Source: Anaerolineae bacterium (GTDB lineage: Bacteria; Chloroflexota; Anaerolineae; VGOG01). From it: DNA of 64,000 nt. Position numbers and translations under genes: made by a program. The stretch is taken from positions 24,539 through 88,538 of the forward strand of contig JBAWAP010000323.1 of the NCBI GenBank assembly GCA_049589355.1. Direction: 5' to 3'. The notes beneath the pieces were generated by a model, which was not told the DNA's origin, searched no databases, and worked only from the letters and a program-made list of their open reading frames with translations. The first letter of the stretch is position 1. The number at the start of each line of letters is the position of its first letter. Shown piece after piece: positions 27,626 through 63,753 of this stretch.

Positions 27626-29545
27626 ATGAAGAGGACGAACCTTCGGAGGGTTGCTCTGGCTGCCCTGAGCCTTTGGCTCATGCTGGCAGCCATTTCTCTT
27701 TCTGGGTTACCCGTTTTGCCGGCGGGTGCCCAGGACGGTGTGACGCTGGAACTGGTGGCCCAACTCAGGGGGACAACTTATGCCGTCCACGTGATTGGCA
27801 ACTATGCCTACATCGGCGAGGGGCCAAGGCTGGTCGTCCTGGACATCTCCGACCCGGCCAACCCCACGGAGGTGGGCCGCACCGACGTGCTACACGGCGT
27901 TGTGTGGGGTGTTCACGTGGTGGGGGATTACGCCTACGTTGCCGCTGGGCCTGATGGCCTGCGGGTCATCTCGGTCGCTGACAAGGCCAACCCTATTGAG
28001 GTTGGCTTTCTCGACACCCCTGGCTGGGCCTATGGCGTTCACGTCGTGGGGGACTACGCCTACGTTGCCGATGAAGAAGGTGGCCTGCGGGTCATCTCGG
28101 TTGCCGACAAGGCCAGTCCCACCGAGGCTGGCTTCTTCAATACGCCCGGTGTAGCGTACGGCGTTCAGGTAGTGGGGGATTACGCCTACGTCGCCGATTA
28201 TGGCGCTGGTCTGCGGGTCATCACCGTTGCGGACAAGGCCGACCCAACCGAGGTAGGTTTCTTCGACACCGATAGCCTGGCATGGGGCGTTCGCGTCGTG
28301 GAGGACTATGCCTACGTCACCGATTATCTGGAGGGCCTTCGAATCATCTCGGTTGCCGACAAGGCGAATCCCACTGAGGTCAGCTTCTTTGACACATCTG
28401 GCTATGCTTATGGCGTTCACGTGATGGGCGACTATGCCTACGTAGCCAACGCCGCTGGCCTATGGGTCATCTCGGTTGCGGACAAGGCGAACCCCACCGA
28501 GGTCAGCTTCTTCGACACGCCAGGCTCGGCGTATGGCGTTCATGTTGTGGGGGACTACGCCTACGTCGCCGATAGGTGGGAGGGTCTGCGGGTCATCTCT
28601 GTAGCTGACAAGGCGAACCCCACCGAGGTGGGCTACTTCGACACGGCTGGCCAGGCAGAGGGCGTTAACGTCGTGGGGGACTACGCCTACATCGCCGGTT
28701 GGAGAGCTGGCCTGCGGGTCATCTCGATTGCGGACAAGGCGCACCCCACCGAGGTTGGCTACTTCGACACGCCTGGCTCGGCAGAGGGCGTTCACGTGGT
28801 GGGGGACTACGCCTACGTCGCCGATTGGGATCAGGGACTTCGGGTCATCTCGGTTGCGGATGAGGCTCACCCCACCGAGGTTGGCTTCTTCGATACGCCC
28901 GGCACGGCAAGGGGAGTTCACGCCGTGGGGGACTACGCCTACGTCGCCGATGGCGGCGAGGGCCTACGAGTCATCTCGGTGGCTGACAAGGCCAACCCCG
29001 CCGAGGTTGGCTACTTCGATACGTCCGGCACGGCATACGGCGTTCACGTCGTCGGTGACTACGCCTACGTCGCCGATGAGAGAGGGGGCCTTCGGATCAT
29101 CTCGGTGGTGGATAGGGCCAACCCGGCCGAGGTTGGCTTCTTCGACAGGGCAGGCGCTGCAGATGGCGTTCACGTGGTGGGGAATTACGCCTACGTCGCT
29201 GATTCCGATGAGGGCCTTCGAGTCATCTCCGTTGCCGACAAGGCAAATCCCACTGAGGTCGGCTTCTTCGACACGTCTGGCTATGCTTATGCCGTTCACG
29301 TCGTGGGGAACTACGCCTACGTCGCCGATCATAGGGAGGGCCTTCTGGTCATCTCCGTTGCTGACAAGGCTAACCCCACCGAGGTGGGCTCCTTCGACAC
29401 GCCTGGCAGGGCGGTGGGCGTTCAGGTGGCAGGGGACTACGCCTACGTCGCCGATTTGGATGGTGGGCTGGTCATCCTGCGCATCATCAGGGAGCTGCCT
29501 TACACGATCTGCCTGCCCCTTGTCCTCAAAAACTACGGCCCGTAA
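27626..29545 (+). CDS. Secreted LVIVD-repeat beta-propeller protein
   Basis: Signal peptide followed by about 14 tandem 42-aa units GDYAYVAD-x3-GLRVISVADKANPTEVGFFDTPG (126-bp DNA period). Confidence 0.85.
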   Translation: MKRTNLRRVALAALSLWLMLAAISLSGLPVLPAGAQDGVTLELVAQLRGTTYAVHVIGNYAYIGEGPRLVVLDISDPANPTEVGRTDVLHGVVWGVHVVGDYAYVAAGPDGLRVISVADKANPIEVGFLDTPGWAYGVHVVGDYAYVADEEGGLRVISVADKASPTEAGFFNTPGVAYGVQVVGDYAYVADYGAGLRVITVADKADPTEVGFFDTDSLAWGVRVVEDYAYVTDYLEGLRIISVADKANPTEVSFFDTSGYAYGVHVMGDYAYVANAAGLWVISVADKANPTEVSFFDTPGSAYGVHVVGDYAYVADRWEGLRVISVADKANPTEVGYFDTAGQAEGVNVVGDYAYIAGWRAGLRVISIADKAHPTEVGYFDTPGSAEGVHVVGDYAYVADWDQGLRVISVADEAHPTEVGFFDTPGTARGVHAVGDYAYVADGGEGLRVISVADKANPAEVGYFDTSGTAYGVHVVGDYAYVADERGGLRIISVVDRANPAEVGFFDRAGAADGVHVVGNYAYVADSDEGLRVISVADKANPTEVGFFDTSGYAYAVHVVGNYAYVADHREGLLVISVADKANPTEVGSFDTPGRAVGVQVAGDYAYVADLDGGLVILRIIRELPYTICLPLVLKNYGP

Positions 29546-32821: not shown

Positions 32822-33766
32822 CTATCTCCACAGCCAGATCAGTCTGGCTCTCCTCTCGTCTAGCCGGTTCAGCCCTGCTTCGTGGGCCAGGCGCACCGCT
32901 TCCGCGTACTCTTCGGAGGTGATGCGGCGGTTCAGAGAAGGCAATTCGTGCCCTTTGTAGCAGGGGTGGTACTGGTCCATAAGGTTAAGGTAAGTGTTGG
33001 TGGAGACCTCTTGGGCCAGAAACTTTACGATCTCGGCCGTGCCGGCCAGCCCCTCAGGGAGTACCAGGTGGCGCACCAGCAGCCCTTGCAAAGCCACTCC
33101 CCGCTCGTCCAAAACCAAATCCCCTACCTGGCGGTGCATTTCTTTCATCGCCGCCTGGTTTATGGTCGGGTAGTTCTTTACCTTCGAGTAGCGCAGGGCT
33201 ACATCGGCGTCGGCGTACTTCATGTCGGGCATGTAGATGTCCACGATGCCGTCCAACAGGGCCAGGGTCTTCAGAGAATCGTAGCCGCCGGTGTTGTAGA
33301 CCAGGAGCAGGCGCAGGCCAGCCTCGGCGGCGATGAGCAGCCCGGCCAGAATCTGGGGCACCACGTGGGTGGGGGAGACGAAGTTGATGTTGTGGCAGCC
33401 CAGGTCTTGCAGGTGCAGCATCATGGCGGCCAGTGCCTCTGGCTCCACCTCTCGCCCCTGGCCCAGTTGGCTGATCTCGTAGTTCTGGCAGTACTGGCAG
33501 TTCAGGTTGCACCAGGCGAAGAAAATCGTCCCGGAGCCGCCCCGGCCGACCAGGGGCGCTTCCTCCCCGAAGTGGGGGTTGTAGCTAGAGACGAAGGCTC
33601 GCTCCCCCGTGCGGCAGACGGCCCCCTTGGCGCTCTCCCTGCGGTTCACGCCGCACTCCCTGGGGCAAACATCGCACGCCTCCAGTCGCTGATACGCCTC
33701 CTTGACCCGCTCCCTCAGCTCGCCGGAGCGGAGGAGTTTGAGGTATGCGGGTTCGAAATTCCCCAT
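32822..33766 (-). CDS. Radical SAM enzyme, PflX/YjjW-like activase family
   Basis: CNLNCQYCQN cluster motif. The ATG at 33766 overlaps the stop of the upstream gene (TGATG). Confidence 0.8.
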   Translation of the reverse strand: MGNFEPAYLKLLRSGELRERVKEAYQRLEACDVCPRECGVNRRESAKGAVCRTGERAFVSSYNPHFGEEAPLVGRGGSGTIFFAWCNLNCQYCQNYEISQLGQGREVEPEALAAMMLHLQDLGCHNINFVSPTHVVPQILAGLLIAAEAGLRLLLVYNTGGYDSLKTLALLDGIVDIYMPDMKYADADVALRYSKVKNYPTINQAAMKEMHRQVGDLVLDERGVALQGLLVRHLVLPEGLAGTAEIVKFLAQEVSTNTYLNLMDQYHPCYKGHELPSLNRRITSEEYAEAVRLAHEAGLNRLDERRARLIWLWR

Positions 33767-34401
33767 CACGTCAAGTTTCCCGCTTCTTTTCTAGCCGTCT
33801 GCTTTAAGTGCTCCCAGAGCGCCGTCACCTCTAGTCCCAGAGCTTTGGCGTGCCGCTCCACGTAGCTTTCATCGAAGCTGGCTTTCAAGGCTGGGTCTTC
33901 ACCCAGGTAGATGAAGACCAGGATGCCGTAGATATCCTCCTCGTGTCGGCGCGAGCGGCCTTCTACCCAGGCCATCAGCTTGCCTACGATGACGTCCTCT
34001 GGTCGTGCGAGCCAGGCCTCGAATTGTGCCCCGCTTGGATCCTCGACGGTGCGTTGAACTCGGCGAGTCAGGGCTTCACGATAGCGGGGATCCATGGTTA
34101 GCGGCACCAGGTCCACCTTCTGTCCTCGCTCAGTGTCAATCAGGTTGAACAGGATTCCGAGGCGAATGGAATCCCGCATCTGCTCAGGGTCGGCGTAGTA
34201 GCGCGGGGGCGGATAGCGCTTCGCTAAAGCCAGAATGTGAGCTTCCTGGAGGTCCACGACGATGTCAATGTCGTAGGTCACCCTGGTGCTGCCATAAGCT
34301 GCTGCGGCGAAACCGCCGATGATCACATACGGCGCACCGATCTCCTCCAGCGTCTGTAAGGCATCGAAGTAGAAGCTGGGAATAGCCTCTCGATCAGTCA
34401 T
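33766..34401 (-). CDS. Nucleotidyltransferase-fold protein (TA/defence-type)
   Basis: IIGGFAAAAYGSTRVTYDIDIVV (G-S...DxD) minimal nucleotidyltransferase signature. 211 aa. Confidence 0.65.
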   Translation of the reverse strand: MTDREAIPSFYFDALQTLEEIGAPYVIIGGFAAAAYGSTRVTYDIDIVVDLQEAHILALAKRYPPPRYYADPEQMRDSIRLGILFNLIDTERGQKVDLVPLTMDPRYREALTRRVQRTVEDPSGAQFEAWLARPEDVIVGKLMAWVEGRSRRHEEDIYGILVFIYLGEDPALKASFDESYVERHAKALGLEVTALWEHLKQTARKEAGNLT

Positions 34402-34609
34402 TGGAGCTCACTTCCTTCAATACCAGCAAATTGATCTCTCGTCGTGAGAGGTGTGGGTATTGGTGGCGCAATCGTCCTCGGACGATGTTCATGGCCAAGG
34501 CTTGAGCCTCCAGCATGGTGCGCACTCGCTTCGCCGCTGGCACTCGCGCCAGCAGTCGCAATTGATCAAGGTCCAAAGGTCCCCAAGGGCTCGCCCTTGT
34601 TTCTGTCAT
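34394..34609 (-). CDS. Small partner protein of the nucleotidyltransferase
   Basis: 71 aa from ATG 34609 (MTETRASPWG...). Overlaps the nucleotidyltransferase start by 8 nt. The longer ORF start lies in the relic copy in another frame. Confidence 0.5.
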   Translation of the reverse strand: MTETRASPWGPLDLDQLRLLARVPAAKRVRTMLEAQALAMNIVRGRLRHQYPHLSRREINLLVLKEVSSND

Positions 34610-34746
34610 CACTTGCTCCTGCGGTTTACGCCGCACTCCCTGGGGCAGACATCGCACGCCTCCAGCCGCTTATATGCCTCCTTGACCCGCTCCTTCAGCT
34701 CGCCGGAGCGGAGGAGTTTGAGATATGCGGGTTCGAAATGGGTCAT
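34609..34746 (-). pseudogene. Relic 5' fragment (45 codons) of the radical-SAM gene
   Basis: 34621-34746 matches 33641-33766 with about 7 substitutions over the ~117 nt up to the codon-3 divergence. Encodes MTHFEPAYLKLLRSGELKERVKEAYKRLEACDVCPRECGVNR and then stops. Its TGA overlaps the next ATG. Confidence 0.85.
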
Positions 34747-34814
34747 TTCACTTCTCGCTCGGAATTTCGCTGAGACCGGCCTAGCTGTGGGCTAGGACGG
34801 AAGTAGCGAACCTG

Positions 34815-35918
34815 TCAAGACATGATCTGCTTCTCACAGTACTCTTCAAAAGTCCCAAAGGGGACCGGGTCTTCTTGAAAGAAATGTCCTAGGAAGCTGA
34901 GTACTTTCTCGCGCACATCTGACTTTGGTTCAACCAATGTCAGGGTTGGACGCCATGGGTTGTTGGCAATAGCGCGTTTGAATAGCCACTTTGCCTCAAT
35001 GTCCGCATCTGGAAAAGAATACCCGATTACAGTGAGGGTATCCGCTCTCTCAAGGAAGTGCTCAGCACGATGCCACATACCGACCAGTTCTGGTATATCC
35101 ATCTGTTTTAGCAAAGTGGGGGGCACCAACACAGGGACCAGATGTGCATTTCCACATGACAGACACGACTGGTCAGATATTTGTCGGTATCTTCGGAAGT
35201 AGGCAAGGAACAACCGCTGGCAATGCGGACAGCGCGCCCAATTGAGTGATCCATGAAGCTTCAAGAGGTCAACATCTTCTTTCCTTCTTTGCTTGGAAAG
35301 CAGCCTTTCATACCCTGGACAGTTTTCCACCTCTGCAAACTCAATGTTGTAATCGCCCAGTATCCCATGATTGTTTATTGACATAGCTTGATCCAAGAAG
35401 AGATCATAGTTAAAGGTGATCATGCAATTGATCTCATCAACATGCATAATGTAATCAACAAGTTTGTCGTAACAATTTCGATTGTGGTCAAGAGTTCCAT
35501 CTTCGAGTCTTCTAAGGCAGTCAGAGTAGTATATGAGCGTTGTCTGCTCTAATGTCGTGAAGATGAATTCATGGAGCGCATCTTGCAAGCCTTCAAAAGG
35601 CAGCCAGGTTTCACGATGTCGCAGCCCCAAATCCACGAAGGAAAGCAGATCTTCGATGTTGACAGAAGGGATGTCGAATGGTCTCCAGATATGGTCAGGG
35701 CCAAGTGCGTCCTCAGTATACGTTTCCAATCTGCTGCCGTAGAGCCTGTCTATAAGTTGTGCTACCATTCTAAACTTTCGTGTTGACACGTCGTAGGCGT
35801 CAGGAAACGGAAGTAGCCAGAAGCCCTCGGACAAGAAGTCCTTTGTTAGTGGTGCCCCCACGTGTTTAGACGCACCAGCTCCAAAGACATATATGTTTAC
35901 CTTTGAGCCATTGATCAT
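34815..35918 (-). CDS. SIR2-family (SIR2_2-like) protein with Zn-ribbon
   Basis: N-terminal IYVFGAGAS NAD-binding motif, LKLHGSLNW catalytic-His motif, CPHC...CLSCG. Visibly lower GC than the flanks. Confidence 0.75.
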   Translation of the reverse strand: MINGSKVNIYVFGAGASKHVGAPLTKDFLSEGFWLLPFPDAYDVSTRKFRMVAQLIDRLYGSRLETYTEDALGPDHIWRPFDIPSVNIEDLLSFVDLGLRHRETWLPFEGLQDALHEFIFTTLEQTTLIYYSDCLRRLEDGTLDHNRNCYDKLVDYIMHVDEINCMITFNYDLFLDQAMSINNHGILGDYNIEFAEVENCPGYERLLSKQRRKEDVDLLKLHGSLNWARCPHCQRLFLAYFRRYRQISDQSCLSCGNAHLVPVLVPPTLLKQMDIPELVGMWHRAEHFLERADTLTVIGYSFPDADIEAKWLFKRAIANNPWRPTLTLVEPKSDVREKVLSFLGHFFQEDPVPFGTFEEYCEKQIMS

Positions 35919-35933: not shown

Positions 35934-36056
35934 TTAATGCCTGCGCTTCTTGCGCGGACGAGCCGTAAACTGGGACGGCTGGGTCGATCCTCCCGATTGC
36001 GCGATTCTTCGCGTCCGTTCCCTCTGGTAATCGCGAATCTCTTTCGCCAGTGGATG
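35934..36056 (-). repeat. Direct repeat R1: relic gene 3' end (...HPLAKEIRDYQRERTRR...RPRKKRRH*)
   Basis: About 89% identical (13/123 mismatches, hand count) to 36233-36355. No usable start codon. Its stop lies 15 nt before the SIR2 ATG. Confidence 0.8.
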
Positions 36057-36067
36057 GCGACTAGAAT

Positions 36068-36117
36068 CACTGAAGCCACTGACAAACACTGAGCACACTG
36101 ATTCAGTGTCTTCAGTG
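36068..36117. repeat. Heptamer-type hairpin (CACTGAA units / TTCAGTG)
   Basis: CACTGAAGCCACTGACAAACACTGAGCACACTGATTCAGTGTCTTCAGTG. Confidence 0.8.
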
Positions 36118-36120
36118 TTT

Positions 36121-36189
36121 TCACCAATTCACCGGCGCTCTCCTTATCCTCCAGCGCCGCTCCCAATACTGGACGCACTTGTTTTGCCT
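36121..36189 (-). pseudogene. Relic 3' end of a DEDD-exonuclease gene
   Basis: 84% identical (11/69 mismatches) to the 3' end of the intact exonuclease gene (37154-37222). In-frame translation RQNKCVQYWERRWRIRRAPVNW* compares with RQNKYVQYRDRQWRIKRVPVNW*. Confidence 0.8.
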
Positions 36190-36232
36190 CGAAGGCGGCC
36201 CAAGGATGTTGTTGGAAGTAGGGATTTACCGC

Positions 36233-36355
36233 TTAATGCCTCCGTCTTTTGCGCGGGCGAGCGGTAAACTGCGACGACTTGGCCGATCCTCCCGATTGCA
36301 CGATTCTTCGCGTCCGTTCCCTCTGGTAAGCGCGAATCTCTTTCGCCAGTGGATG
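36233..36355 (-). repeat. Direct repeat R2: second relic copy of the same gene 3' end
   Basis: Encodes ...ILSRHPLAKEIRAYQRERTRRIVQSGGSAKSSQFTARPRKRRRH*. An in-frame TGA lies upstream and there is no start codon. Confidence 0.8.
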
Positions 36356-36451
36356 ACGGGAGAGAATCCGCAGGTGGGTGATGGAAACGATGATTCTCTC
36401 AGTTCACCAGCCGCTTAATCTCCAGCTTCGGCGCGCCAAAGTCACGGTGGG

Positions 36452-36754
36452 TTATCGCAGTCTCTTTCCTTTCGTCTTGATCTCCCAGGCCAGGGGGTGC
36501 TCGTCGCAAAACTGCTCAGGACGGAAGCGGACTGGCTCAATCCGGGGGTCACTGCGCAGCAAGGCATCCACGATCTTCTGGTGGTCTTCCAGCCAGTCGC
36601 CGGTGAAATCCCCTGAGATCAGAGCGACATCAATGTCACTGTCAGGACGAACCGTTCCCTCAGCATGGGAGCCATACAGATAGGCCGATACCAGACGAAG
36701 GCCTGAGCCTTCGACCTCCTCCAAGAAGCGAGTAACTGCTTTTTCAACATCCAC
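36452..36754 (-). CDS. MNT-type minimal nucleotidyltransferase
   Basis: LYGSHAEG...DSDIDV signature. 100 aa. C-terminus is HPLAWEIKTKGKRLR. Confidence 0.75.
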   Translation of the reverse strand: MDVEKAVTRFLEEVEGSGLRLVSAYLYGSHAEGTVRPDSDIDVALISGDFTGDWLEDHQKIVDALLRSDPRIEPVRFRPEQFCDEHPLAWEIKTKGKRLR

Positions 36755-37019
36755 CTGTGATTACTCCATCCTGTTCTTCAGTCGTTGTGGTGGACATTTT
36801 AGGCGAGGACGATTCCTGTCGAGCCTGGGTTACTAGCCGTTCCAGAATGGCAGAGGCAGCCAGGATGGCATCCTCTGGCTCTTCCTCGCGGTTCAGCAGA
36901 TTGTCTATGATGAGCTCCATTTGATCGAATGAGGTGATGTCCACCAGAACGGCTTTTGCCTCGCCACCTTCGTAAACGATGGGAAAGCGGTCTCGGATCC
37001 AGAAAGTCGTTTCGGCCAT
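36744..37019 (-). CDS. Small partner protein (Phd/YefM-like antitoxin fold suspected)
   Basis: 91 aa. Overlaps the MNT start by 11 nt. PIVYEGGEAKAVLVDITSFDQMELIIDNL pattern. Confidence 0.5.
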   Translation of the reverse strand: MAETTFWIRDRFPIVYEGGEAKAVLVDITSFDQMELIIDNLLNREEEPEDAILAASAILERLVTQARQESSSPKMSTTTTEEQDGVITGGC

Positions 37020-37153
37020 GATTCATCTCCTGCTTTTAATCGTTACGCCAGATGTGGCGCAGCTTATCCTTACTGCGGCCAGCACATCCACGATCTTGAT
37101 TACGTATATTGTACCACAATCAGCATCACAACGAAAGGGGAAAGCCGCATCCC

Positions 37154-37687
37154 TCACCAGTTCACCGGCACCCTCTTGATCCTCCACTGCCGGTCCCGAT
37201 ACTGGACGTACTTGTTCTGCCTGCCAAATTCGTAGAGCTGCCTGGTGATCTCCACGTCCTGTTGGCAGTAGTCGAAAAGCTCCTGCATCTTGCCCTGACG
37301 CCACCAGCGGATGGCCTGCATCCCGTCGGCTGACTTCGTTGTTCCTAGAGTGGCGCTGGCCAGAGCGTCGAGGCTCAGGCGGAAGCCCAGGGTTCGGTAG
37401 ACATCATCCAGTATGTCCACCGTGGGGAACTGGCGGAGGGGATAGTCGGTGTAGGCCCTCAGCACCTCGTAGTCGAAGCGTACCACGTTGAAGCCTACCA
37501 CGAGATCCGCCGCCTTCAACTCCTCGATGAGCTCGGCTACGTTGTCTTCGGTGTAGTGGTGATACTCGCCATCGGCGGTCGAATAGGTCACCGCCACCGA
37601 CAGGCTCAGGTGCCGAATGTTGTGCCGGCCTCCCACTTCCTGAAAGCTCCGCCGGGTCTCCAGGTCGAAGAAGACGATGGTCTTCAC
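37154..37687 (-). CDS. DEDDy-type 3'-5' exonuclease (RNase H-like fold)
   Basis: FFDLET (Exo I), GFNVVRFD (Exo II), YCQQD (Exo III). 177 aa. 4-nt overlap with the upstream SNF2 gene. Confidence 0.75.
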   Translation of the reverse strand: MKTIVFFDLETRRSFQEVGGRHNIRHLSLSVAVTYSTADGEYHHYTEDNVAELIEELKAADLVVGFNVVRFDYEVLRAYTDYPLRQFPTVDILDDVYRTLGFRLSLDALASATLGTTKSADGMQAIRWWRQGKMQELFDYCQQDVEITRQLYEFGRQNKYVQYRDRQWRIKRVPVNW

Positions 37688-55772: not shown

Positions 55773-58700
55773 ATGATCGTCAACAATCATCAACTCTTCT
55801 CCCATACCTACCTCGCACGGCTGCAAGCCGATCCCACACACGACGAAGCGGCCGCGCCCATAGGCCAAGGGTTGCGTGACTGGATGCCCTTCCGCGATAC
55901 CTCCTCGCTCCGGTCGCTGATTGATTCCTGGGTCGGCCCGGTGCTCGACTTCCTGAAGTTCCACCACGTGCTGGCTGATGACTCTCCCCACATTTGCCTG
56001 CTCTACACACGCCGGGGCGATGAAACGCCTGTCGGCCTATGCTACGTCGTCCCACCTGGCCAAGATGGTTCGACAGGCTCACCACGTGGCTTGAATGACA
56101 CAACCAAAGGCCAACATCCGATGGCCCAAGCGGTCCTAGCTCTGCGCACTCGCGACCTGCGCTGGGGGATGCTGACTGACGGCGCGCGCTGGCGGCTGGT
56201 TGACGCCCAGGCCCTGCGCCGCTACGAGCATTACGTCGAGGTGGACCTGGACGAACTAGCCCGCAGCGACGACCCCACACCCTTGCGCCTCTTCTACGCT
56301 TTCTTCCACCGCAGCGCCTTCACGCCCGCTCATTCCCCCGCCAGCGGGGGGACCGAGGGGGGTGGTGAGAGCGGGCTGGATCGGCTGGTGGCGGCCTCGA
56401 TCCGAGCGACGAAGGCGGCTGAGGATCACCTCAAGGCGCGGGTCAGCCACAACGAGGGCATCATGGCCCAACTGTGCCTGGGGCTGGTGCGTGCCGATGG
56501 GCGAACTTGCTACACCGACACAGAACGGGACGCTATCTACCGCGACGCCACCTATCTCCTCTACCGCATACTTTTCATCCTCTATGCCGAAGCCCGGGGC
56601 CTCTTGCCGGTGAACAACCTGGCCTACCGCGCCGTGAGTCTGGCCGAGTTAGTCAAGACCGCCCACGACTACAAGTTGCGTGGGATGCCCGACCCTCAGG
56701 CGACGATGCTGTGGGAACGGCTGAAGCGGCTATGCAATGCCATCTACGAGAGCGACCCGGTGCTGGGCATTCCCGCTTATAACGGCGGCCTCTTCGACGA
56801 TGCTGACAAGCCTTACCTGCGTGACGGCCACATCGCCGATATGTATCTCACCGAGGCCCTCTTCGACCTGGCCTACATGCCCGACAAGGTGCCAGGCACT
56901 TCCGAAGTGCCTGGCACCTCCTACCGCCCCATTGACTACCGCGACCTCTCCGTGCGCCACATGGGCAGCCTCTATGAGGGGATGATCGAGTACAAGCTTC
57001 ACATCGCCGAGGAGACGCTGTGGGCGCGGCGGGACGGCAAGGGCAACGTGCGCTTTCTGCGCAGCGGCCAGGACGGGGCACCCCGCAAGACCGATGTGGA
57101 GATCGAGCCGGGCCAGGTCTACTTCTCCCAGAGCCCCGGCGAGCGACGCGCCACCGGCACCTACTACACCCCGGAGTACATCGTGGACTACATCGTGCGC
57201 CAGACGGTGGTGCGGGGGCTGGAGGAACGACGCGCTCCACTGGAGGAGAAGCTGGCCGGCTGGCTGGAGGAGATCGCCGTCACGACCGACCCCGCCGAGC
57301 GGGCTCGGATGCAGCGCACTGCTGACGAGGAACTGCTGCGCTTCGTCAAGGAGCAGGTGCTCACTTTCCGTGTCTGCGACATAGGAATGGGCAGTGGTCA
57401 CTTCCTGGTCAACTCGGCCCATCAGATCGCCAACTCTATCATGGAAACCCTGCACCTGACCCCGTGGGGGCCTGTCCTGAGCGGAGTCGAAGGAAACGAC
57501 GCGGTTGACGCCGACCCGGCAACCTGGCGGCGGCAGGTAGTGGAGCGCTGTCTGTACGGGGTGGACCTGAGCTTGATGGCCGTGGAGCTAGCCAAGCTGA
57601 GCCTGTGGCTGGCCAGCGTGGCCGAGGGCAAACCCCTGTCTTTCTTGGATCACCACCTGCGTCAAGGCAACAGCCTCATCGGTGCCCGGCTGGAGGACCT
57701 GGCCGAGGTCCTGGCGGGCGTGGCTTCCACTCGTCCGTCGCGCCAGGAGCGCAAAGCACGGGAAGCAGGGCAACTTTCAATGCTAGATGACCCGGCTTTC
57801 AGCCAACACGTAACGGCAGCGACTGATCTGTTGGCTCAGATCTCGGCCCGGGTGGTTGAGAGAGTGGAGGACATCAAGGCCCAGGAGGCCGACTATGAAC
57901 AGGTGCGCGCTGAGTTGGAGCCCTACCGGCGGCTGGCCGATCTTTGGACTGCGCGTCACTTCGGTGTGGATGTGGATGAGCAGCAGTTGAGAGCCATTTC
58001 CAGGTACCTGGTCAACGGCGCTGTCAGTCCAGTGCCAGAATACGAGCGAATTCTAACACGGACTCAAGAACTAGCCCACGACCGAAGCTTCTTCCACTGG
58101 GAACTCGAATTTCCCACGGTCTTCCTCGATCAGTCTGATCAGCTACTGGAAGACAGAGCAGGGTTTGATGCAGTGGTTGGAAATCCACCTTATTCGTTAG
58201 ATCTGACTCAACAGGAGAAACACTACTTCAAGAAAACGTATCCCAGTCTGTTCTTCAAGATAAACCTCTTTGCCGCATTTGTTGAGAGAGGACTAGAACT
58301 GTCGAGAAGCCCCACCGGATGCTTGTCGTTGATCATCCCTAATCTGTTACTTGGCAACAGATCGTTGAGAGACTTGCGTGTGAAACTGGCGACTGACAAT
58401 ACCATTCGCGCCCTGCACAACCTTGGCGATGGTGTTTTTGAGGAAGCCGAAGTGCCCACGCTAGTATTTGTTGTGCAAAAGCAGCTCCCTCTGCCAGACC
58501 ACGAAGTTGTTGTTGGTTCTGGGGCATTGACTGGTGGAAACCTGGATGCTCAGCGCATTCGTCAGAGCTCGATTCTAGTTACACAAGAGCAGGTGTTTAA
58601 TCTGTCGTCAACGCGTGAGATAGACATCATCACCCGCCTCATGGCGAGATGCGACTTGTTCCAAGATCATCTTGACATTCATCAGGGCGTGATTACCGGT

Positions 58701-59888
58701 GATGACTCTCGTTTCCTTGCTGATGCGCCTAGAGGATCACATTGGAAACCAACTCTCACTGGCAAAGACATCGACCGTTACATAACGGACTACCCCACTC
58801 TGTACGTTGACTACCAGCCTGCTTTGCTTGCGGCGCCAAGGGAAATTGCTATCTTCGATGTTCCCGAAAAGCTATTGATGCGACGCACTGGAGACAGACC
58901 ACTAGCGTCTTACGACGACCGACAGACCTTTAATCTTCATACTTTGTACTCCATTCGTAAAGAGAATAGCTCACTCCTCAGCTTGAAATACTGTCTTGCA
59001 CTCATAAATTCCTCTCTGATGGCTTGGATTTACAAGACACTCTTGCCTACTGAAATTGGTCGCACTTTCGCGGAAATCAAGATAGTACACATTCGGCAAC
59101 TTCCCATCAGCCGCATTGCCTTCACCACGCCTCTTAATGAGCGCACGGTACTGGTACAGGAAAGTGTTGCGCTTTACATCGCAGGTAAGCAAGAAGCGTT
59201 GCTTGCGTCTGTGTCAGAGTGGCTCACAACCCAACCAGGGCGAGCCGACGTTGTCCACGACCTGCTGGCTCACCTGGCGCAGCAGATGATTGACCTCAAC
59301 AAAGAGCGCCAGCGATTGGAGCGTGAGGCCAACCTGTTCCGCTTCGTGGATCGCGATACGTCCTGCGTGAAGCTGGATGAGGCCCTGGGCGGGCCGTTGG
59401 GTGCCGGCGAAATGGTAGGCAATTTATCTGCCGTCCACCACAACATTGAGGGCTTGCGCCTCACACAAGAGGATAATGGCCGCTGGCTCCTGGAGGTGCG
59501 GGCCAAGCTACGCGACCCGGAGAGCGACTGGCGGGAGCATCAGCGCGATAAGGAAGGCAACTTCATCCGTCAGTGGCTGCCGGCCTACCGCCTGCCGCTG
59601 GACAAGGCGACCGGCCGCTTCTATCACTACGCCTTTGCCCACTTGGGCGGCTTCGCCGGGGCCGGCAAGTTCCCCGGCGGCTCCACCCGCACCACGCTGG
59701 AGAAGCTCAAGGCGACGAAGGTGCCTAAGCTCGTGTCGGTGGACTTGGCCCCACTGACCGTGCTAGACGCCGAACTGACCGAGGTGCGCCGCAAGATCCG
59801 CCTCACCGATGACTTGATTGACCAGATCGTGTACAGGCTCTATGGGCTAACCGAGGAGGAGATTGCGATTGTGGAGGGGCGGGGGTGA
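55773..59888 (+). CDS. Large type IIG / PglX-like N6-adenine DNA methyltransferase
   Basis: GTYYTPEYIVDYIV, DIGMGSGHFL (motif I), VVGNPPYS (motif IV), N-terminal LTDGARWRLV. The C-terminal YRLYGLTEEEIAIVEG is typical of Eco57I/TaqI-like enzymes. 1371 aa. Confidence 0.85.
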   Translation: MIVNNHQLFSHTYLARLQADPTHDEAAAPIGQGLRDWMPFRDTSSLRSLIDSWVGPVLDFLKFHHVLADDSPHICLLYTRRGDETPVGLCYVVPPGQDGSTGSPRGLNDTTKGQHPMAQAVLALRTRDLRWGMLTDGARWRLVDAQALRRYEHYVEVDLDELARSDDPTPLRLFYAFFHRSAFTPAHSPASGGTEGGGESGLDRLVAASIRATKAAEDHLKARVSHNEGIMAQLCLGLVRADGRTCYTDTERDAIYRDATYLLYRILFILYAEARGLLPVNNLAYRAVSLAELVKTAHDYKLRGMPDPQATMLWERLKRLCNAIYESDPVLGIPAYNGGLFDDADKPYLRDGHIADMYLTEALFDLAYMPDKVPGTSEVPGTSYRPIDYRDLSVRHMGSLYEGMIEYKLHIAEETLWARRDGKGNVRFLRSGQDGAPRKTDVEIEPGQVYFSQSPGERRATGTYYTPEYIVDYIVRQTVVRGLEERRAPLEEKLAGWLEEIAVTTDPAERARMQRTADEELLRFVKEQVLTFRVCDIGMGSGHFLVNSAHQIANSIMETLHLTPWGPVLSGVEGNDAVDADPATWRRQVVERCLYGVDLSLMAVELAKLSLWLASVAEGKPLSFLDHHLRQGNSLIGARLEDLAEVLAGVASTRPSRQERKAREAGQLSMLDDPAFSQHVTAATDLLAQISARVVERVEDIKAQEADYEQVRAELEPYRRLADLWTARHFGVDVDEQQLRAISRYLVNGAVSPVPEYERILTRTQELAHDRSFFHWELEFPTVFLDQSDQLLEDRAGFDAVVGNPPYSLDLTQQEKHYFKKTYPSLFFKINLFAAFVERGLELSRSPTGCLSLIIPNLLLGNRSLRDLRVKLATDNTIRALHNLGDGVFEEAEVPTLVFVVQKQLPLPDHEVVVGSGALTGGNLDAQRIRQSSILVTQEQVFNLSSTREIDIITRLMARCDLFQDHLDIHQGVITGDDSRFLADAPRGSHWKPTLTGKDIDRYITDYPTLYVDYQPALLAAPREIAIFDVPEKLLMRRTGDRPLASYDDRQTFNLHTLYSIRKENSSLLSLKYCLALINSSLMAWIYKTLLPTEIGRTFAEIKIVHIRQLPISRIAFTTPLNERTVLVQESVALYIAGKQEALLASVSEWLTTQPGRADVVHDLLAHLAQQMIDLNKERQRLEREANLFRFVDRDTSCVKLDEALGGPLGAGEMVGNLSAVHHNIEGLRLTQEDNGRWLLEVRAKLRDPESDWREHQRDKEGNFIRQWLPAYRLPLDKATGRFYHYAFAHLGGFAGAGKFPGGSTRTTLEKLKATKVPKLVSVDLAPLTVLDAELTEVRRKIRLTDDLIDQIVYRLYGLTEEEIAIVEGRG

Positions 59889-60092
59889 AACATTCCCTAT
59901 CTTCGAAGACCCACTGATTTGAATGGTGACCATGACAAAGTCTTCCGTGGTGCCCATATATTGTGGTATCCTCGGCCATGAATACAACATATAGTATGCA
60001 CGAGAAATTCTGTCATCCTTGGACTCCAAATCAGTGGTAGTCTGATCTTGTAAGTCTATTAACGCGTAAGTGTTCGTCCCAAGGAGAAAGCT

Positions 60093-61931
60093 ATGAATCT
60101 ACCCAGTGAAGGGGATCTTTTCACCCCGAAATCGGCAATCCTGGATAGCCTATTACCTGACATTTGCCGGCACAAGATTGCCCTGCCTGAATTCCAACGT
60201 CCATGGGTTTGGGAACCAGAGATGGTACGCGACCTACTGATCTCTGTTGCCTACCGTTACCCAGCAGGTAGTTTGCTGACCATGCCTGTCAGTGGAGACA
60301 GCTTCGCTCTGCGCCCTTTTGAAGGGTGTAGTGACAAGCTGCGAGACAAGCCGAACCTAGTCATCCTGGACGGTCAACAACGACTGACTAGCCTCTACCA
60401 GTCTCTTTATTGGCGAGATGGAGTTCACTATAAACAGCACAAGTACTACTTTTATCTGGATGTAGCAATATTGATGGCCGACCGGGATGGCATAGACGTG
60501 GGCGATCCGTATTTTGACCAGGCACTGTTCTACGTGCGAGAAGAGAAGAATGGCCGCCGGGTGCGTTACGACGGCCTGCGGCCGATGTACGAGTTGACGA
60601 CTGCTGAGGACGAACTTCGAGCCGGCGCGTTGCCCCTCGGCTGCATCTTTGATAATGATGCACTGACCAAGTGGAAAGAGGAGTACCTCTATCGCCAAAC
60701 GACCGATTTGGCGCGTTACCGGGAACTCAATCGGGAATGGGACCGACTTGTACATGCATGGATAACCCGTATCCGCACGTACCGCTTTCCGGTTGTGGAA
60801 CTGGACGATTCCATGCCCCTGGGAGCGATATGTCACATTTTCGAGAAACTCAACAGTACGGGTGTTCCTTTGGATGTCTTTGACCTTTGCAACGCTATCC
60901 TTTGGGCACAGGGCTTCCATCTCAACCATCGCTGGGCTGCCACAGAAAAGGAACTGAAGGAAGCCCTGCCCATGCAACCGCTTTCCGGCACTTATTTCTT
61001 GCAGGGTTTGTCTCTGCTTGACTCTATGGACCGCAAAAGAGCCAATCCAGACCGGGAGATTGCGGTCACTTGCCGCAAGCAAGACCTCATGGCTATGAAG
61101 CGCGAAACGGTTGAAAAATGGTGGGATCCCCTTGTAAAAGGCTACGGGGAAGCTGCCAAATTCATGGCCGACCAGGGTATCATAGCCACACGCATTCTGC
61201 CTTACTCCACGTTGATTACCCCGCTCTCGGCTGTTTTCGCCGATCTGATACGGCACAAAGGCACTGCCCATATAGGCGCTACGTGGCCACAAATTGAGCG
61301 CTGGTACTGGTGCAGCGTATTCAGCCAGCGGTATAGCAGCCAGATTGAGACTGCCTCAGCCCGGGATTTTGAGCATGTCCTCAACTGGATTGACGGCGGG
61401 GAACCTCCCGATGTTGTGCGCACCTTTGGCTTTCGCTCCGACGCCCTGCAAGAGATCACCTCTATCCGCAACGCCATCTACAAAGGAGTGCTCTGCTTGC
61501 TGACGCGCGGGGGGGCCAAAGACTTTGGCGGCGGAGGTAAACTCTCAACGCACCTCTTCTACGCGACCAACCAGGATCACCACCACATTTTCCCCACCAA
61601 TGCACTCAAGCGACTGGGTATTCAAGACCGACGTGTTGACACTATCGTCAACAAAACACTGATCAATTACGCAGTCAACCGCAGCATTGGTGGCAGACTA
61701 CCCTCCGAGTACGTGAGAGATTGGCGGGGTAGGTTAGGCGCTGCCCTTTTCGACAGCATTTTGGAGACGCATAGGGTTGATTCCGCTTCCTTGAGCAATG
61801 ATAACTGGGAACGTTACTTGCTCGATCGGCGGGAGAAGCTTCGGCAACTGATTGCCTCAGCCTGTGGTGGCAATATCCAACCCTTCTCTGACATTGCTGA
61901 CCTTGAGGTTGAGGATAACGAAGAAGTGTGA
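60093..61931 (+). CDS. DUF262/DUF1524 (GmrSD-like) type IV restriction-type protein
   Basis: DGQQRLTSL (DUF262) at the N-terminus. HHIFP...VNKTLINYAVNRSIG (His-Me/DUF1524-like) at the C-terminus. 612 aa, with lower GC than the flanks. Confidence 0.8.
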   Translation: MNLPSEGDLFTPKSAILDSLLPDICRHKIALPEFQRPWVWEPEMVRDLLISVAYRYPAGSLLTMPVSGDSFALRPFEGCSDKLRDKPNLVILDGQQRLTSLYQSLYWRDGVHYKQHKYYFYLDVAILMADRDGIDVGDPYFDQALFYVREEKNGRRVRYDGLRPMYELTTAEDELRAGALPLGCIFDNDALTKWKEEYLYRQTTDLARYRELNREWDRLVHAWITRIRTYRFPVVELDDSMPLGAICHIFEKLNSTGVPLDVFDLCNAILWAQGFHLNHRWAATEKELKEALPMQPLSGTYFLQGLSLLDSMDRKRANPDREIAVTCRKQDLMAMKRETVEKWWDPLVKGYGEAAKFMADQGIIATRILPYSTLITPLSAVFADLIRHKGTAHIGATWPQIERWYWCSVFSQRYSSQIETASARDFEHVLNWIDGGEPPDVVRTFGFRSDALQEITSIRNAIYKGVLCLLTRGGAKDFGGGGKLSTHLFYATNQDHHHIFPTNALKRLGIQDRRVDTIVNKTLINYAVNRSIGGRLPSEYVRDWRGRLGAALFDSILETHRVDSASLSNDNWERYLLDRREKLRQLIASACGGNIQPFSDIADLEVEDNEEV

Positions 61932-61945
61932 AATGGCAGGAAGAA

Positions 61946-62056
61946 GACCTGACTGACCAGATCGTGTACAGGCTCTATGGGCTGACGGAGGAGGAGATCG
62001 CGATTGTGGAGGGGCGGGCGCCAGGGTCATACCCAGAAGAGGAACGATCAGAATGA
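61946..62056 (+). pseudogene. Relic 3' end of the methyltransferase gene
   Basis: 61955-62018 matches 59820-59883 (3 mismatches in 64 nt). In-frame DQIVYRLYGLTEEEIAIVEGRAPGSYPEEERSE*, whose TGA overlaps ATG 62053 of the next gene. Confidence 0.85.
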
Positions 62057-63753
62057 CGGAGCAAGAGTTGCGTACCCTCATTGCCGGAGGGGAAACACCA
62101 ACGGTGGAGTTCAAGAGTGACCACGGACCACTGCCTGACACCGAACTGCTGGAGACCGTGATCTGCCTGGCCAACGGGCAAGGTGGTACACTGCTGGTAG
62201 GCGTAGAGGATGACGGCCGTGTGACTGGTCTGCACTCCCATCACCGAACCCATCCAGGTGCATTGGCGGCCTTGATTGCCAACCGGACAGTACCCCCGGT
62301 GACCGTTGAAGCCGCGTTTGTGGATCTCCCCGAGGGGACTGTGGCCGTTGTCGTTGTGCCTCCCGCTCGCCAACCGGTGGCGACCAGCGATGGCAGGTTG
62401 CTCATTCGTTATGTAGACACGCGGGGGCGACCCGGTTGCCGTCCCTTCTACCCGCACGAAATGGCGAGCTGGCGCGCCGACCGGGGCATGGCCGACATGT
62501 CGGCGCTGCCAGTGCCGGGTACCGGCTGGGAGGATCTGGATCCGCTGGAACTGGCGCGTCTGCGCCGGATGGTGCACGAATTCCACGGCGATGTGGCACT
62601 GCTGGAGCTGGATGACGACCAGTTGGCCCAGGCGCTGGGCCTGGTGCAATCCCACCAAGGGTGCCTACAGCCAACATTGGCCGGACTGTTGCTGGTGGGA
62701 ACAGAGGAGGCCCTGCGCCAGCATGTTCCCGCTCATGAGGTCGCCTTCCAGGTGTTGCGGGGCACGGACGTGGCAGTCAACGAGTTCCGCCGCTGGCCAC
62801 TGCTGCGGATGTTGGAATGGGTGCTGGAATCGTTCCAGGTGCGCAACGAGGAGCGGGAGTTGAGCATCGGCCTGTTTCGAGTCGGTGTGCCTGCCTACGA
62901 CCCGCGCGGCTTTCGTGAGGCAGTGAACAACGCACTCATCCACCGGGACTATGCTCTGTTGGGAGCTATCCACATTCAGATGCACGATGATTATGTTCGC
63001 ATCAGCAATCCTGGTGGTTTTGTGGAAGGGGTGAGACTTGACAACCTGCTGGTGACCGAGCCGCGCCCTCGTAACCCTCGCTTGGCCGACGCTTTCAAAC
63101 GAATAGGCCTAGTGGAACGCACCGGCCGTGGCGTGGCCATCATCTACAATGGCCAGTTGCGCAACGGCCGTCTGCCGCCGGACTACAGTTTGAGCACCGA
63201 GGCAAGCGTCAGCGTCATACTCCCCGGTGGTCCGGCCGATCTGGATTTCGTTCAGTTGGTGGTCACCGAGGAAAACCGCCGTCAGCGGCCTTTGGGGGTG
63301 AGCGAATTGTTGGTGCTGGCTCACGTGTGGTGCGAGCGGACTATAGATACTGCCACCGCAGCCCGGCTCATCCAACGGGATGAAGCCCAGGCCCGGGCTG
63401 TGCTGGAAAGCTTGGTAGAGACCGGTCTGCTCGAAGGGCGCGGAGCTAAACGAGGCCGCACATATCTGCTCAGCGCCGGCGTGTACCGTGCCCTGGGCCG
63501 GCCTGCCGCGTACGTCCGCGCCCGGGGTTTTGAGGCGGAACAGATGAAGCAGATGATCTTGCAGTACGTGCGTGCCCACGGCCGCATCGCTCGGCGTGAG
63601 GTGATGGAGCTGTGCCGGATCAATGAGAATCAGGCGGGGTACCTGCTCAAGAGGCTAGCCCAGCAGGGCCAGCTTCTGCTGGTGGGCAAGGGGCGCTCGG
63701 CCTACTACGAGAGCGCCAAGAGCGCCCGTAAGACTCGGAATAACTCGGAATAG
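62053..63753 (+). CDS. AlbA_2 (Schlafen-like) / HATPase_c_4 putative DNA-binding ATPase-regulator
   Basis: N-terminal GETPTVEFKSD AlbA_2 signature, central ATPase-like region, C-terminal winged-helix-like tail. 566 aa. Confidence 0.7.
   Translation: MTEQELRTLIAGGETPTVEFKSDHGPLPDTELLETVICLANGQGGTLLVGVEDDGRVTGLHSHHRTHPGALAALIANRTVPPVTVEAAFVDLPEGTVAVVVVPPARQPVATSDGRLLIRYVDTRGRPGCRPFYPHEMASWRADRGMADMSALPVPGTGWEDLDPLELARLRRMVHEFHGDVALLELDDDQLAQALGLVQSHQGCLQPTLAGLLLVGTEEALRQHVPAHEVAFQVLRGTDVAVNEFRRWPLLRMLEWVLESFQVRNEERELSIGLFRVGVPAYDPRGFREAVNNALIHRDYALLGAIHIQMHDDYVRISNPGGFVEGVRLDNLLVTEPRPRNPRLADAFKRIGLVERTGRGVAIIYNGQLRNGRLPPDYSLSTEASVSVILPGGPADLDFVQLVVTEENRRQRPLGVSELLVLAHVWCERTIDTATAARLIQRDEAQARAVLESLVETGLLEGRGAKRGRTYLLSAGVYRALGRPAAYVRARGFEAEQMKQMILQYVRAHGRIARREVMELCRINENQAGYLLKRLAQQGQLLLVGKGRSAYYESAKSARKTRNNSE

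Follow-up and report, generated by a model that had tools for sequence, protein, structure and literature searches.

The interval between an SNF2 helicase-exonuclease gene pair and a radical-SAM gene in a 64,000-nucleotide stretch of Anaerolineae bacterium DNA (contig JBAWAP010000323.1; the whole stretch is called the window below) is, in one Anaerolineae clade, a chromosomal hotspot for defence islands. The gene fragments stacked within it are, in our judgement, probably the recombination scars of repeated segment replacement that was anchored in the flanking genes and completed by illegitimate joins. On the minus strand the gene order is SNF2 helicase, DEDD exonuclease, a 91-aa open reading frame (ORF), a 100-aa MNT-type nucleotidyltransferase gene, about 520 nt without an intact gene, SIR2_2, a small ORF with an AbiEii-like gene, and the radical-SAM gene. 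A protein search with the exonuclease yielded 28 loci from species-representative genomes, and more were collected through exact-protein look-ups and a metagenome scan for the hairpin pattern described below. Comparison of about 35 related loci (referred to by L numbers) identified every relic in the interval and revealed junctions that are shared between genomes and lie at arbitrary positions, with no recombinase nearby.

The exonuclease and radical-SAM genes flank a variable region in the window and in L003, L004, L008, L009, L026, L051, L052, L054, L056, L058 and L060-62; the exonuclease orthologues in L001-L010 are 77-93% identical at the amino acid level. Two loci are empty, with only 87 nt (L008) and 118 nt (L009) from exonuclease stop to radical-SAM start, while all others with both flanks hold 0.7-7.6 kb of differing cargo in at least eight distinct sets. 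Using Pfam and PADLOC, we recognized Eco57I/MmeI-type IIG restriction-modification (RM) genes, HATPase with N6_N4 methyltransferase (MTase), RelE-like toxin-antitoxin (TA) genes, TIR-nSTAND, STAND-TPR, caspase, Schlafen, SIR2, MNT/HEPN and AbiEii; an AAA ATPase with a TCAD9 kinase and an ABC transporter were further cargo. Among 27 cargo ORFs scanned across the loci, the single mobility-type gene was an IS200-like Y1_Tnp (HUH) at L001:17819-18388, downstream of the type IIG RM gene, and no other recombinase or transposase was found. A first-pass annotation, made from the window's letters without database searches, had taken the locus for a serial cassette-insertion hotspot. With two empty loci and more than ten relatives of differing cargo, it stands as a hotspot of serial gene replacement.

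Comparison of the window with itself revealed direct repeats that far exceed chance expectation. Two short relics, R1 (35934-36059) and R2 (36233-36358), are 90% identical over 126 nt (blastn E = 1.3e-40); a third, E2 (36121-36189), is 84% identical over 69 nt to the last 69 nt of the intact exonuclease gene (37154-37222; E = 7.5e-16); and the 5' end of the radical-SAM gene (33638-33759) recurs at 34618-34739 with 94% identity over 122 nt (E about 2e-44). The first-pass annotation had placed R1, R2 and E2 where we find them, had taken E2 for a displaced exonuclease tail, and had noted the hairpin directly after the E2 stop (36061-36120), the SIR2 start 15 nt past R1 and the want of a start codon in R1 and R2; all of this was confirmed. 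Scars were under-counted in that list, which missed the radical-SAM head, the tail of a GxxExxY-nuclease gene, the foreign C-terminus of the 91-aa 'partner' ORF and the replaced 5' end of the MNT gene.

Origins of the displaced gene ends

R1 and R2 are tails of a gene, here called X, that is native just downstream of the exonuclease. Both translations read ...RHPLAKEIR(D/A)YQRERTRR...RRH before the stop, and in the family alignment they match position by position the conserved C-terminus of the X family (RHPLAxEIRxYQxERTRR..SGG..RPRKKRR). At the nucleotide level they are 80-85% identical to intact X genes in related exonuclease loci, and R2 homology reaches upstream to about 36395 (..IIVSITHLRILSRHPLAK..). 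An intact X gene of 126 aa, ending ..SITHLRVxxRHPLAQEIRxYQxERTRRLAxSGG...RPRKRRRR, lies shortly downstream of the exonuclease in L001 (13280-13660), L033-37 (L033:6001-6381), L047 and L056; in L033-37 and L047 a hairpin alone stands between the two genes. The earlier assignment of R1 and R2 to MNT-type genes is rejected, the MNT likeness being one 8-residue match with a pairwise E of 0.016. The 43 nt that follow R2 are also found 3' of the X stop in L058 and L047, and in degenerate form in L056.

E2 reads in frame as RQNKCVQYWERRWRIRRAPVNW up to a stop codon at 36123-36121. L058 holds the same succession of X-tail stop, 43 nt and exonuclease-tail relic with an identical left joint, the derived bases CGCTGG and GATAAG being common to its relic and E2, and L056 holds a decayed version of this junction. 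Between its real exonuclease tail and the relic, L058 carries a GxxExxY gene followed by two hairpins, each with a 62-nt X tail (X62), and neither an MNT nor an antitoxin gene. Because L058 shares the E2 junction yet has no MNT, E2 is older than the MNT cassette and not tied to it, and the earlier proposal that this cassette displaced E2 falls. In L053 we found a second, independent joint of X tail to exonuclease tail, which lacks the 43-nt spacer and whose relic resembles the L008-type allele. The exonuclease gene was also scanned for a mosaic breakpoint; its sliding-identity profile has no clear switch.

The segment between the exonuclease stop and R2 is composed of further remnants. The antitoxin upstream region that is fused to the exonuclease stop also follows that stop in L002 and precedes the antitoxin gene at L001:12559-12590; no hairpin stands directly after the exonuclease stop of the window. 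Positions 37070-37100 contain aagatcgtggatgtgctgg (..KIVDVL..), and a similar sequence lies downstream of hairpin A in three loci (L004, L046, L051) and within an L046 gene; this is possibly another gene fragment. Codons 1-73 of the 91-aa ORF, AT' (36801-37019), belong to an 82-aa antitoxin (AT) family, and its last 18 codons are foreign and replace nine native ones. The native antitoxin ends ..SSPDWERELNEL before its stop; the gene downstream encodes a RelE-like toxin (L001, L056) or a 113-aa product (L033). Natively the antitoxin sits after X, whose stop codon is immediately before the antitoxin ribosome-binding site. The window MNT is 86% identical in nucleotides, from about codon 6 to 8 nt past the stop, to its counterpart within the HEPN-MNT pair of L060-62, where its native neighbour is the upstream HEPN gene. 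The adjacent HEPN toxin gene that marks an MNT-HEPN (type VII) pair is absent from the window. The MNT and partner that had been read as a cognate pair are instead a chimeric junction of unrelated truncated genes. Immediately past MNT lies the GxxExxY tail, which shares 84-98% identity with the 3' ends of intact copies in L003, L026, L048, L051, L054 and L058; the intact gene of L003 matches Pfam PDDEXK_3 at 5.8e-34.

On the other side of the hairpin, the R1 stop codon directly precedes AGGAG, the SIR2 ribosome-binding site, and the SIR2 ATG is at 35918. The GC content of SIR2 is 0.467, against 0.583 for the window. In L064/65 SIR2 has its native context as the middle gene of an MTase-SIR2-ResIII system; the window copy keeps about 9 nt upstream and about 20 nt downstream of the native flank, and these 20 nt past its stop (34785-34814) match the ribosome-binding site and start region of the ResIII gene in L064 and represent a further relic. 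SIR2 had been proposed to have arrived early with a partner since decayed. It has indeed lost partners, the MTase and ResIII genes, but R1 is no relic of them and low GC does not suggest early arrival. The joint of X tail to SIR2 recurs in L066, where the order is exonuclease, hairpin B, X111, SIR2, a shorter radical-SAM head relic and an orf71-like gene. The joint of the window's head relic to the 71-aa gene (orf71) recurs exactly in L063, in which an MTase gene replaces SIR2 upstream. The stop codon of the AbiEii-like gene overlaps the radical-SAM start codon; in L060-62 the same 71-aa/AbiEii-like pair abuts radical-SAM without a relic, and these loci display a donor-type, relic-free arrangement of both outer blocks (exonuclease-HEPN-MNT ... 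orf71-AbiEii-radical-SAM).

Table 1. Features of the hotspot and its flanks, in minus-strand order (window coordinates)
Feature	Position	Strand	Basis
SNF2 helicase gene (single 676-aa SWIM-SNF2)	39714-37684	minus	
DEDD/RNase-H-fold exonuclease gene, conserved left flank of hotspot	37154-37687	minus	Pfam RNase_H_2 4e-11
Antitoxin upstream (promoter/leader) region fused directly to exonuclease stop	37020-37153	minus	
AT', truncated chimeric antitoxin ORF (91 aa)	36744-37019	minus	
MNT-type nucleotidyltransferase gene, 5' end (~6 codons) replaced	36452-36754	minus	Pfam NTP_transf_2; NCBIfam MntA below cut-off
Relic 3' tail of GxxExxY / PD-(D/E)XK (PDDEXK_3) nuclease gene, ..FGAPKLEIKRLVN and stop	36399-36451	minus	
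R2, relic 3' tail (last 54 codons) of gene X	36233-36395	minus	85% identity over 163 nt to intact X in L033-37, L047
Native 3' flank of gene X (43 nt), ending at putatively illegitimate junction with E2	36190-36232	minus	
E2, displaced last 23 codons of exonuclease gene	36121-36189	minus	84% identity to 37154-37222; relic in L058:12323-12381
Hairpin A, 2 CACTGA + 4 TCAGTG units	36061-36120	minus	directly after E2 stop codon
R1, relic 3' tail (last 41 codons) of second gene-X allele	35934-36059	minus	self-comparison, blastn, translation
Orphan SIR2_2 defence gene	34815-35918	minus	Pfam SIR2_2, PADLOC SIR2
Radical-SAM 5' head relic (~45 codons), joined to next cassette start	34609-34746	minus	122 nt, 94% identity to 33638-33759
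Cassette: 71-aa Rv0078B-like gene (34394-34609) + AbiEii-like nucleotidyltransferase gene (33766-34401)	33766-34609	minus	Pfam AbiEii 2.7e-5
Radical-SAM gene, conserved right flank of hotspot	32822-33769	minus	Pfam Radical_SAM

Within window 20-60 kb the neighbours of the hotspot are housekeeping genes (SecDF, ThiI, DUF4416 and FecR-like on one side; AKR, AspRS, IleRS, LspA and RluD on the other), and no integrase, transposase or recombinase gene was found there. No tRNA or tmRNA gene borders the hotspot, the sole tRNA of the window being at 4.9 kb, and an Rfam search of 33.5-37.8 kb returned nothing above noise. Upstream of the exonuclease in L033 (897-5371) are a 960-aa DUF3670-SNF2 gene, a 23S_rRNA_IVP gene and a separate 279-aa SWIM gene.

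Proposed segment replacement and competing explanations

According to the reading we favour, incoming DNA from related genomes would pair with the recipient by homology, located either in one of the flanking core genes or in an element common to the islands; the opposite end would be joined illegitimately (homology-facilitated illegitimate recombination), and deletions would follow. A joint that fell inside the recipient's flanking gene would leave a short displaced end, as with E2 from the exonuclease gene and the head relic from the radical-SAM gene; a joint inside an earlier occupant would leave a truncated tail or head, as in R1, R2, the GxxExxY tail, AT' and the truncated MNT. Microhomology deletion between two GGAGGATC octamers, which correspond to the X ribosome-binding site and to codons SGGS, could yield the recurrent unit of hairpin and X62. 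We infer that tails survive because the ribosome-binding site or leader used by the gene downstream lies within them. The same model has been published for arrays of orphaned 3' ends in type VI secretion system (T6SS) and Rhs loci (PMC5361080), and core defence hotspots have been proposed to spread by homologous recombination in their flanks (PMC10250203).

The junctions fall at codon 73 of AT, about codon 6 of MNT, codons 73 and 85 of X, codon 155 of the exonuclease and about codon 45 of radical-SAM. The point 8 nt past the MNT stop is joined to the last 15 or so codons of the GxxExxY gene, that 7 nt past the GxxExxY stop to X codon 73, and that 43 nt past the X stop to exonuclease codon 155. 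No site sequence is common to the junctions. The scars are symmetrical: at either border, a displaced end of the adjoining core gene lies directly within the island.

The relics were also compared with their partners by the ratio of nonsynonymous to synonymous differences (pN/pS), which is 0.30 for R1/R2, 0.34 for the exonuclease tail and E2, and 0.13 for the radical-SAM head; over all three pairs it is 0.27, a departure from neutrality with binomial p = 1.8e-4. Since the differences between relic and partner are mainly synonymous, the paired copies appear to have diverged as functional genes in different lineages before coming together. Such selection-shaped divergence argues for imported alleles over duplication in situ and subsequent decay. 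The latter explanation, in which slippage or unequal crossing-over duplicated the block of exonuclease tail, hairpin, X and 43 nt in tandem and also the radical-SAM head, with decay and later insertions to follow, accounts well for one feature: the order from exonuclease through X tail and 43 nt to E2, hairpin and X tail is exactly a tandem-duplication joint, and L053 provides a second, independent joint of X tail to exonuclease tail. However, identical copies decaying neutrally predict a pN/pS near 1, the L053 relic resembles another allele (the L008 type), and the heterogeneous truncated occupants are left unexplained. We regard duplication in situ as rather unlikely.

Several observations weigh against segment replacement by illegitimate joins, or leave part of the data outside it. 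The pN/pS counts are small (31 substitutions). No junction has a long, clean microhomology, the best being AGGCA at the joint of X stop and exonuclease in L053; matches of 3-5 nt occur at two joints, for which the parental sequences are approximated by relatives. The two independent junctions of X tail and exonuclease tail (window/L058 and L053) start 6-7 nt apart in the exonuclease gene, and this closeness hints at a preferred site. The right arm of the hairpin is far more conserved than neutral DNA, which pure illegitimate recombination does not explain. Finally, recombination is read here from the sequence, and the model would presuppose natural competence, with DNA uptake and RecA-dependent anchoring, in this uncultured lineage.

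The hairpin is the starting point of a different explanation, an integron-like site-specific cassette system in which the hairpin, with or without X62, would be an attC-like site served by a recombinase acting in trans. All genes of the island are co-oriented, hairpin A stands 3' of at least six different genes, and the module of GxxExxY tail, hairpin and X62 is repeated in tandem in L003, L051, L056 and L058. Arrays made up solely of left arms border the GxxExxY gene, conservation is 98.5% in the right arm and 76% in adjacent DNA, and in the metagenome-collection scan the element was confined to this hotspot. However, the attC R''/R' cores (RYYYAAC/GTTRRRY) are absent from the hairpin A consensus and, as a pair, from both strands of 33.7-37.3 kb, and there is no integrase (IntI) gene in the surrounding 40 kb or in the islands scanned. 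Most junctions lie within coding sequence, away from hairpins; X62 copies cluster across genomes by their downstream neighbour, which marks them as old paralogues and not as recently moved units; and L060-type islands are equally variable without any hairpin. An integron-like system is therefore improbable.

Still less credible, in our estimation, is the model of the first-pass annotation, in which an integrase-type element with the MNT cassette entered the exonuclease gene at its 3' end and supplied a new tail, so that E2 and its hairpin were displaced. The exonuclease tail and E2 do bracket 36190-37153 as direct repeats, and pN/pS indicates that the two tails came from different lineages. 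Yet the junction of 43 nt and E2 is present, with shared derived substitutions, in L058, where the bracketed segment contains neither MNT nor AT. No integrase was found in window 20-60 kb or in the cargo ORFs scanned, the two tails share short identical runs and not a long att core, and the bracketed segment is a mosaic of four truncated genes (AT, MNT, GxxExxY tail and X tail). A chimeric contig joining strain variants might be feared in a metagenome-type assembly, where hypervariable repeat loci are prone to misassembly and some X contigs (L043, L044) end just after X, but such an artefact is excluded for practical purposes because the junctions recur in independent assemblies from other samples (43 nt to E2 in L058, radical-SAM head to orf71 in L063, X tail to SIR2 in L066), and the repeat copies are 84-94% identical rather than identical.

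Hairpin A and gene X

Hairpin A generally consists of three or four CACTGA units facing four TCAGTG units that repeat at roughly one helical turn; in the window copy the middle unit of the left arm is missing. Its folding energy as single-stranded DNA is -18.1 kcal/mol (z = -4.8 relative to shuffled sequences), and no other part of the 64 kb contains its units. Intact loci have it in the gap from exonuclease stop to X start, and overall it follows the stop codons of six genes: exonuclease, GxxExxY, AT, RelE-like, HEPN-like and X tail. The right arm (36061-36098, 38 nt, GTGTGTTCAGTGTTTGTCAGTGGCCTCAGTGATTCTA) contains the four TCAGTG units at 9-10 nt spacing and is also present in L003, L026, L051, L054, L058 and others; all of its metagenome matches (15/15) are in this hotspot. 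Across 10 distinct modules, identity is 98.5% for the right arm, 77.6% for the left arm (a figure lowered by a 4-nt apical indel that some copies carry) and 75.8% for the adjoining X62. Because of this difference between right arm and X62, and the grouping of X62 copies by downstream neighbour and not by genome, the right arm is taken to be under sequence-level constraint beyond what a plain terminator explains. Copies were too conserved for covariation analysis to be informative.

Sister lineages have an unrelated repeat hairpin of like architecture at the same site. This hairpin B is built of CGGATA/TATCCG units (L008:3372-3440, L033:5905-5980, L004:10532-10605) and overlaps an extended exonuclease stop (..VNWGNG and stop); L009 has a simple palindrome at the hairpin position. 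Since these analogous structures occupy the same place, they suggest a terminator or insulator at the end of the exonuclease operon. A promoter, operator or recombination site is possible as well. A simple scan of the minus strand found no sigma-70 promoter in the hairpin, and by eye TTGTCA-N16-TAnnnT is a weak match. Hairpin A has no match in Rfam, and no match was found in viral contigs, leaving a phage or viral origin unsupported. The possibility of a mini-ORF that spans the hairpin and continues into the X tail was rejected, since a 4-nt indel breaks its frame in 5 of 18 distinct full copies. We give only a slim chance to the reading that the hairpin is recognized by a recombination system yet to be discovered, structure- or sequence-specific, or by a coordinated-regulation system, that shuffles defence cassettes; this would be an integron-like platform without IntI or attC, possibly involving protein X or the SNF2-exonuclease pair. 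The hairpin is the sole potentially novel component of an otherwise known kind of locus.

The X family comprises 386 homologues at E <= 1e-3, nearly all of 125-130 aa, and those with a source name are from Anaerolineae or Anaerolineales metagenome-assembled genomes. It has no match in Pfam, NCBIfam or PADLOC. Its invariant residues include D56, E57, C62, H80, H87, P88 and L89, and its tail is basic. An AlphaFold model (pLDDT 79.8) has no significant neighbour in the PDB, the best being CcbP (E = 0.13, TM 0.45). In other Anaerolineae lineages X stands downstream of GroEL, a PBP gene, a B12-radical-SAM gene or RelB-YafQ, and is followed, respectively, by a type I RM system, an AT-tail relic, the contig end, and TA/STAND genes; TA or defence genes adjoin it in four of the five chromosomal contexts examined. 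Usually X precedes the 82-aa antitoxin gene, whose ribosome-binding site begins at the X stop codon. The linkage of X, AT and RelE is ancient: even in L038, where X has 65% protein identity to its L001 homologue, a relic of the AT tail and RelE start still trails the gene. X may head a TA-like module of three genes.

Two further ideas about X were rejected. That X binds the hairpin is contradicted by 90%-identical X genes behind hairpin A (L001) and hairpin B (L033), without co-variation. R1 and R2 are not the template and variable repeats of a diversity-generating retroelement either: inspected by eye, their mismatches are not adenine-specific and no reverse transcriptase gene is nearby. Contigs L043 and L044, from two samples, stop about 150 nt past gene X, which suggests strain-level variability or repeats directly 3' of X in another lineage.

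Elsewhere in the window, eleven 126-nt tandem repeats at 27781-29463 lie within a 639-aa ORF and encode LVIVD beta-propeller repeats (Pfam 2.4e-137). A second defence-type locus (55773-63753) contains a 1371-aa Eco57I/TaqI_C RM-methylase gene and two more large ORFs. There, a 76-nt direct repeat of 92% identity (59808-59883 and 61943-62018) links the 3' end of the 1371-aa gene to a point just past the next large ORF, and is possibly another displaced gene end.

Comparison with known systems

Like integron arrays and clusters of attC sites lacking an integron-integrase (CALINs), the island consists of co-oriented, mostly promoterless small cassettes, including TA genes, with a recurring imperfect palindrome of about 70 nt between them. 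It differs from both in having no attC cores and no nearby IntI, and in that its junctions are mostly off the palindrome. Moreover, attC sites conserve structure rather than sequence, whereas the palindrome of hairpin A is nearly invariant in sequence. Repetitive extragenic palindromic (REP) elements and REPINs, together with their REP-associated tyrosine transposases (RAYTs), offer another likeness: they too form hairpins of inverted short repeats just past stop codons, and one IS200-like Y1_Tnp is present in the L001 island. REPs, however, occur as many dispersed copies per genome, whereas hairpin A does not recur in the window's other 60 kb and its 15 metagenome matches are all at this locus.

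The strings of orphaned 3' ends are closer to those of Rhs, contact-dependent inhibition (CDI) and T6SS effector-immunity loci, which are known for C-terminal displacement and orphan arrays (PMC5361080 and references therein). In those loci, as here, successive insertions push earlier 3' ends downstream, and the proposed mechanism is homology-facilitated illegitimate recombination anchored in a conserved upstream gene. Unlike them, the displaced pieces of the window are short (69-163 nt), bear no sign of expression and are not toxin tips kept with immunity genes; the tails come from several unrelated genes, and displacement is seen at both borders, involving a 3' tail on the left and a 5' head on the right.

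The locus is a further example of a kind of defence hotspot known from other bacteria, such as the core-gene-flanked cDHS1/2 of Pseudomonas aeruginosa (PMC10250203) and the defence-island hotspots of E. coli (PMC10121019). It shares with core defence hotspots the fixed flanking core genes, a content that ranges from empty to several kb, and the dominance of anti-phage and conflict systems; there too no single type of mobile element is found, many sites lack a mobility gene, and homologous recombination in the flanks has been proposed. It differs from the P. aeruginosa and E. coli hotspots in the phylum of its host, an uncultured member of the Anaerolineae, in its flanks (SNF2-exonuclease and radical SAM), in having no tRNA or tmRNA border, in islands of less than 8 kb, and in scars that are resolved to the nucleotide, among them a displaced end from each flank. 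The locus thereby extends the pattern of core defence hotspots to uncultured Anaerolineae as an unusually well-resolved case, in which nearly every base between the flanking genes is assignable to an intact gene elsewhere and junctions common to several genomes give the relative order of events. It also illustrates that plausible TA pairs in such islands can be chimeric joins of unrelated truncated genes, and it brings to notice two uncharacterised elements, the 126-aa gene X and the nearly invariant repeat hairpin. The displaced ends of both flanks point to flank-anchored recombination, and not to an integrase, as the route by which these islands turn over.

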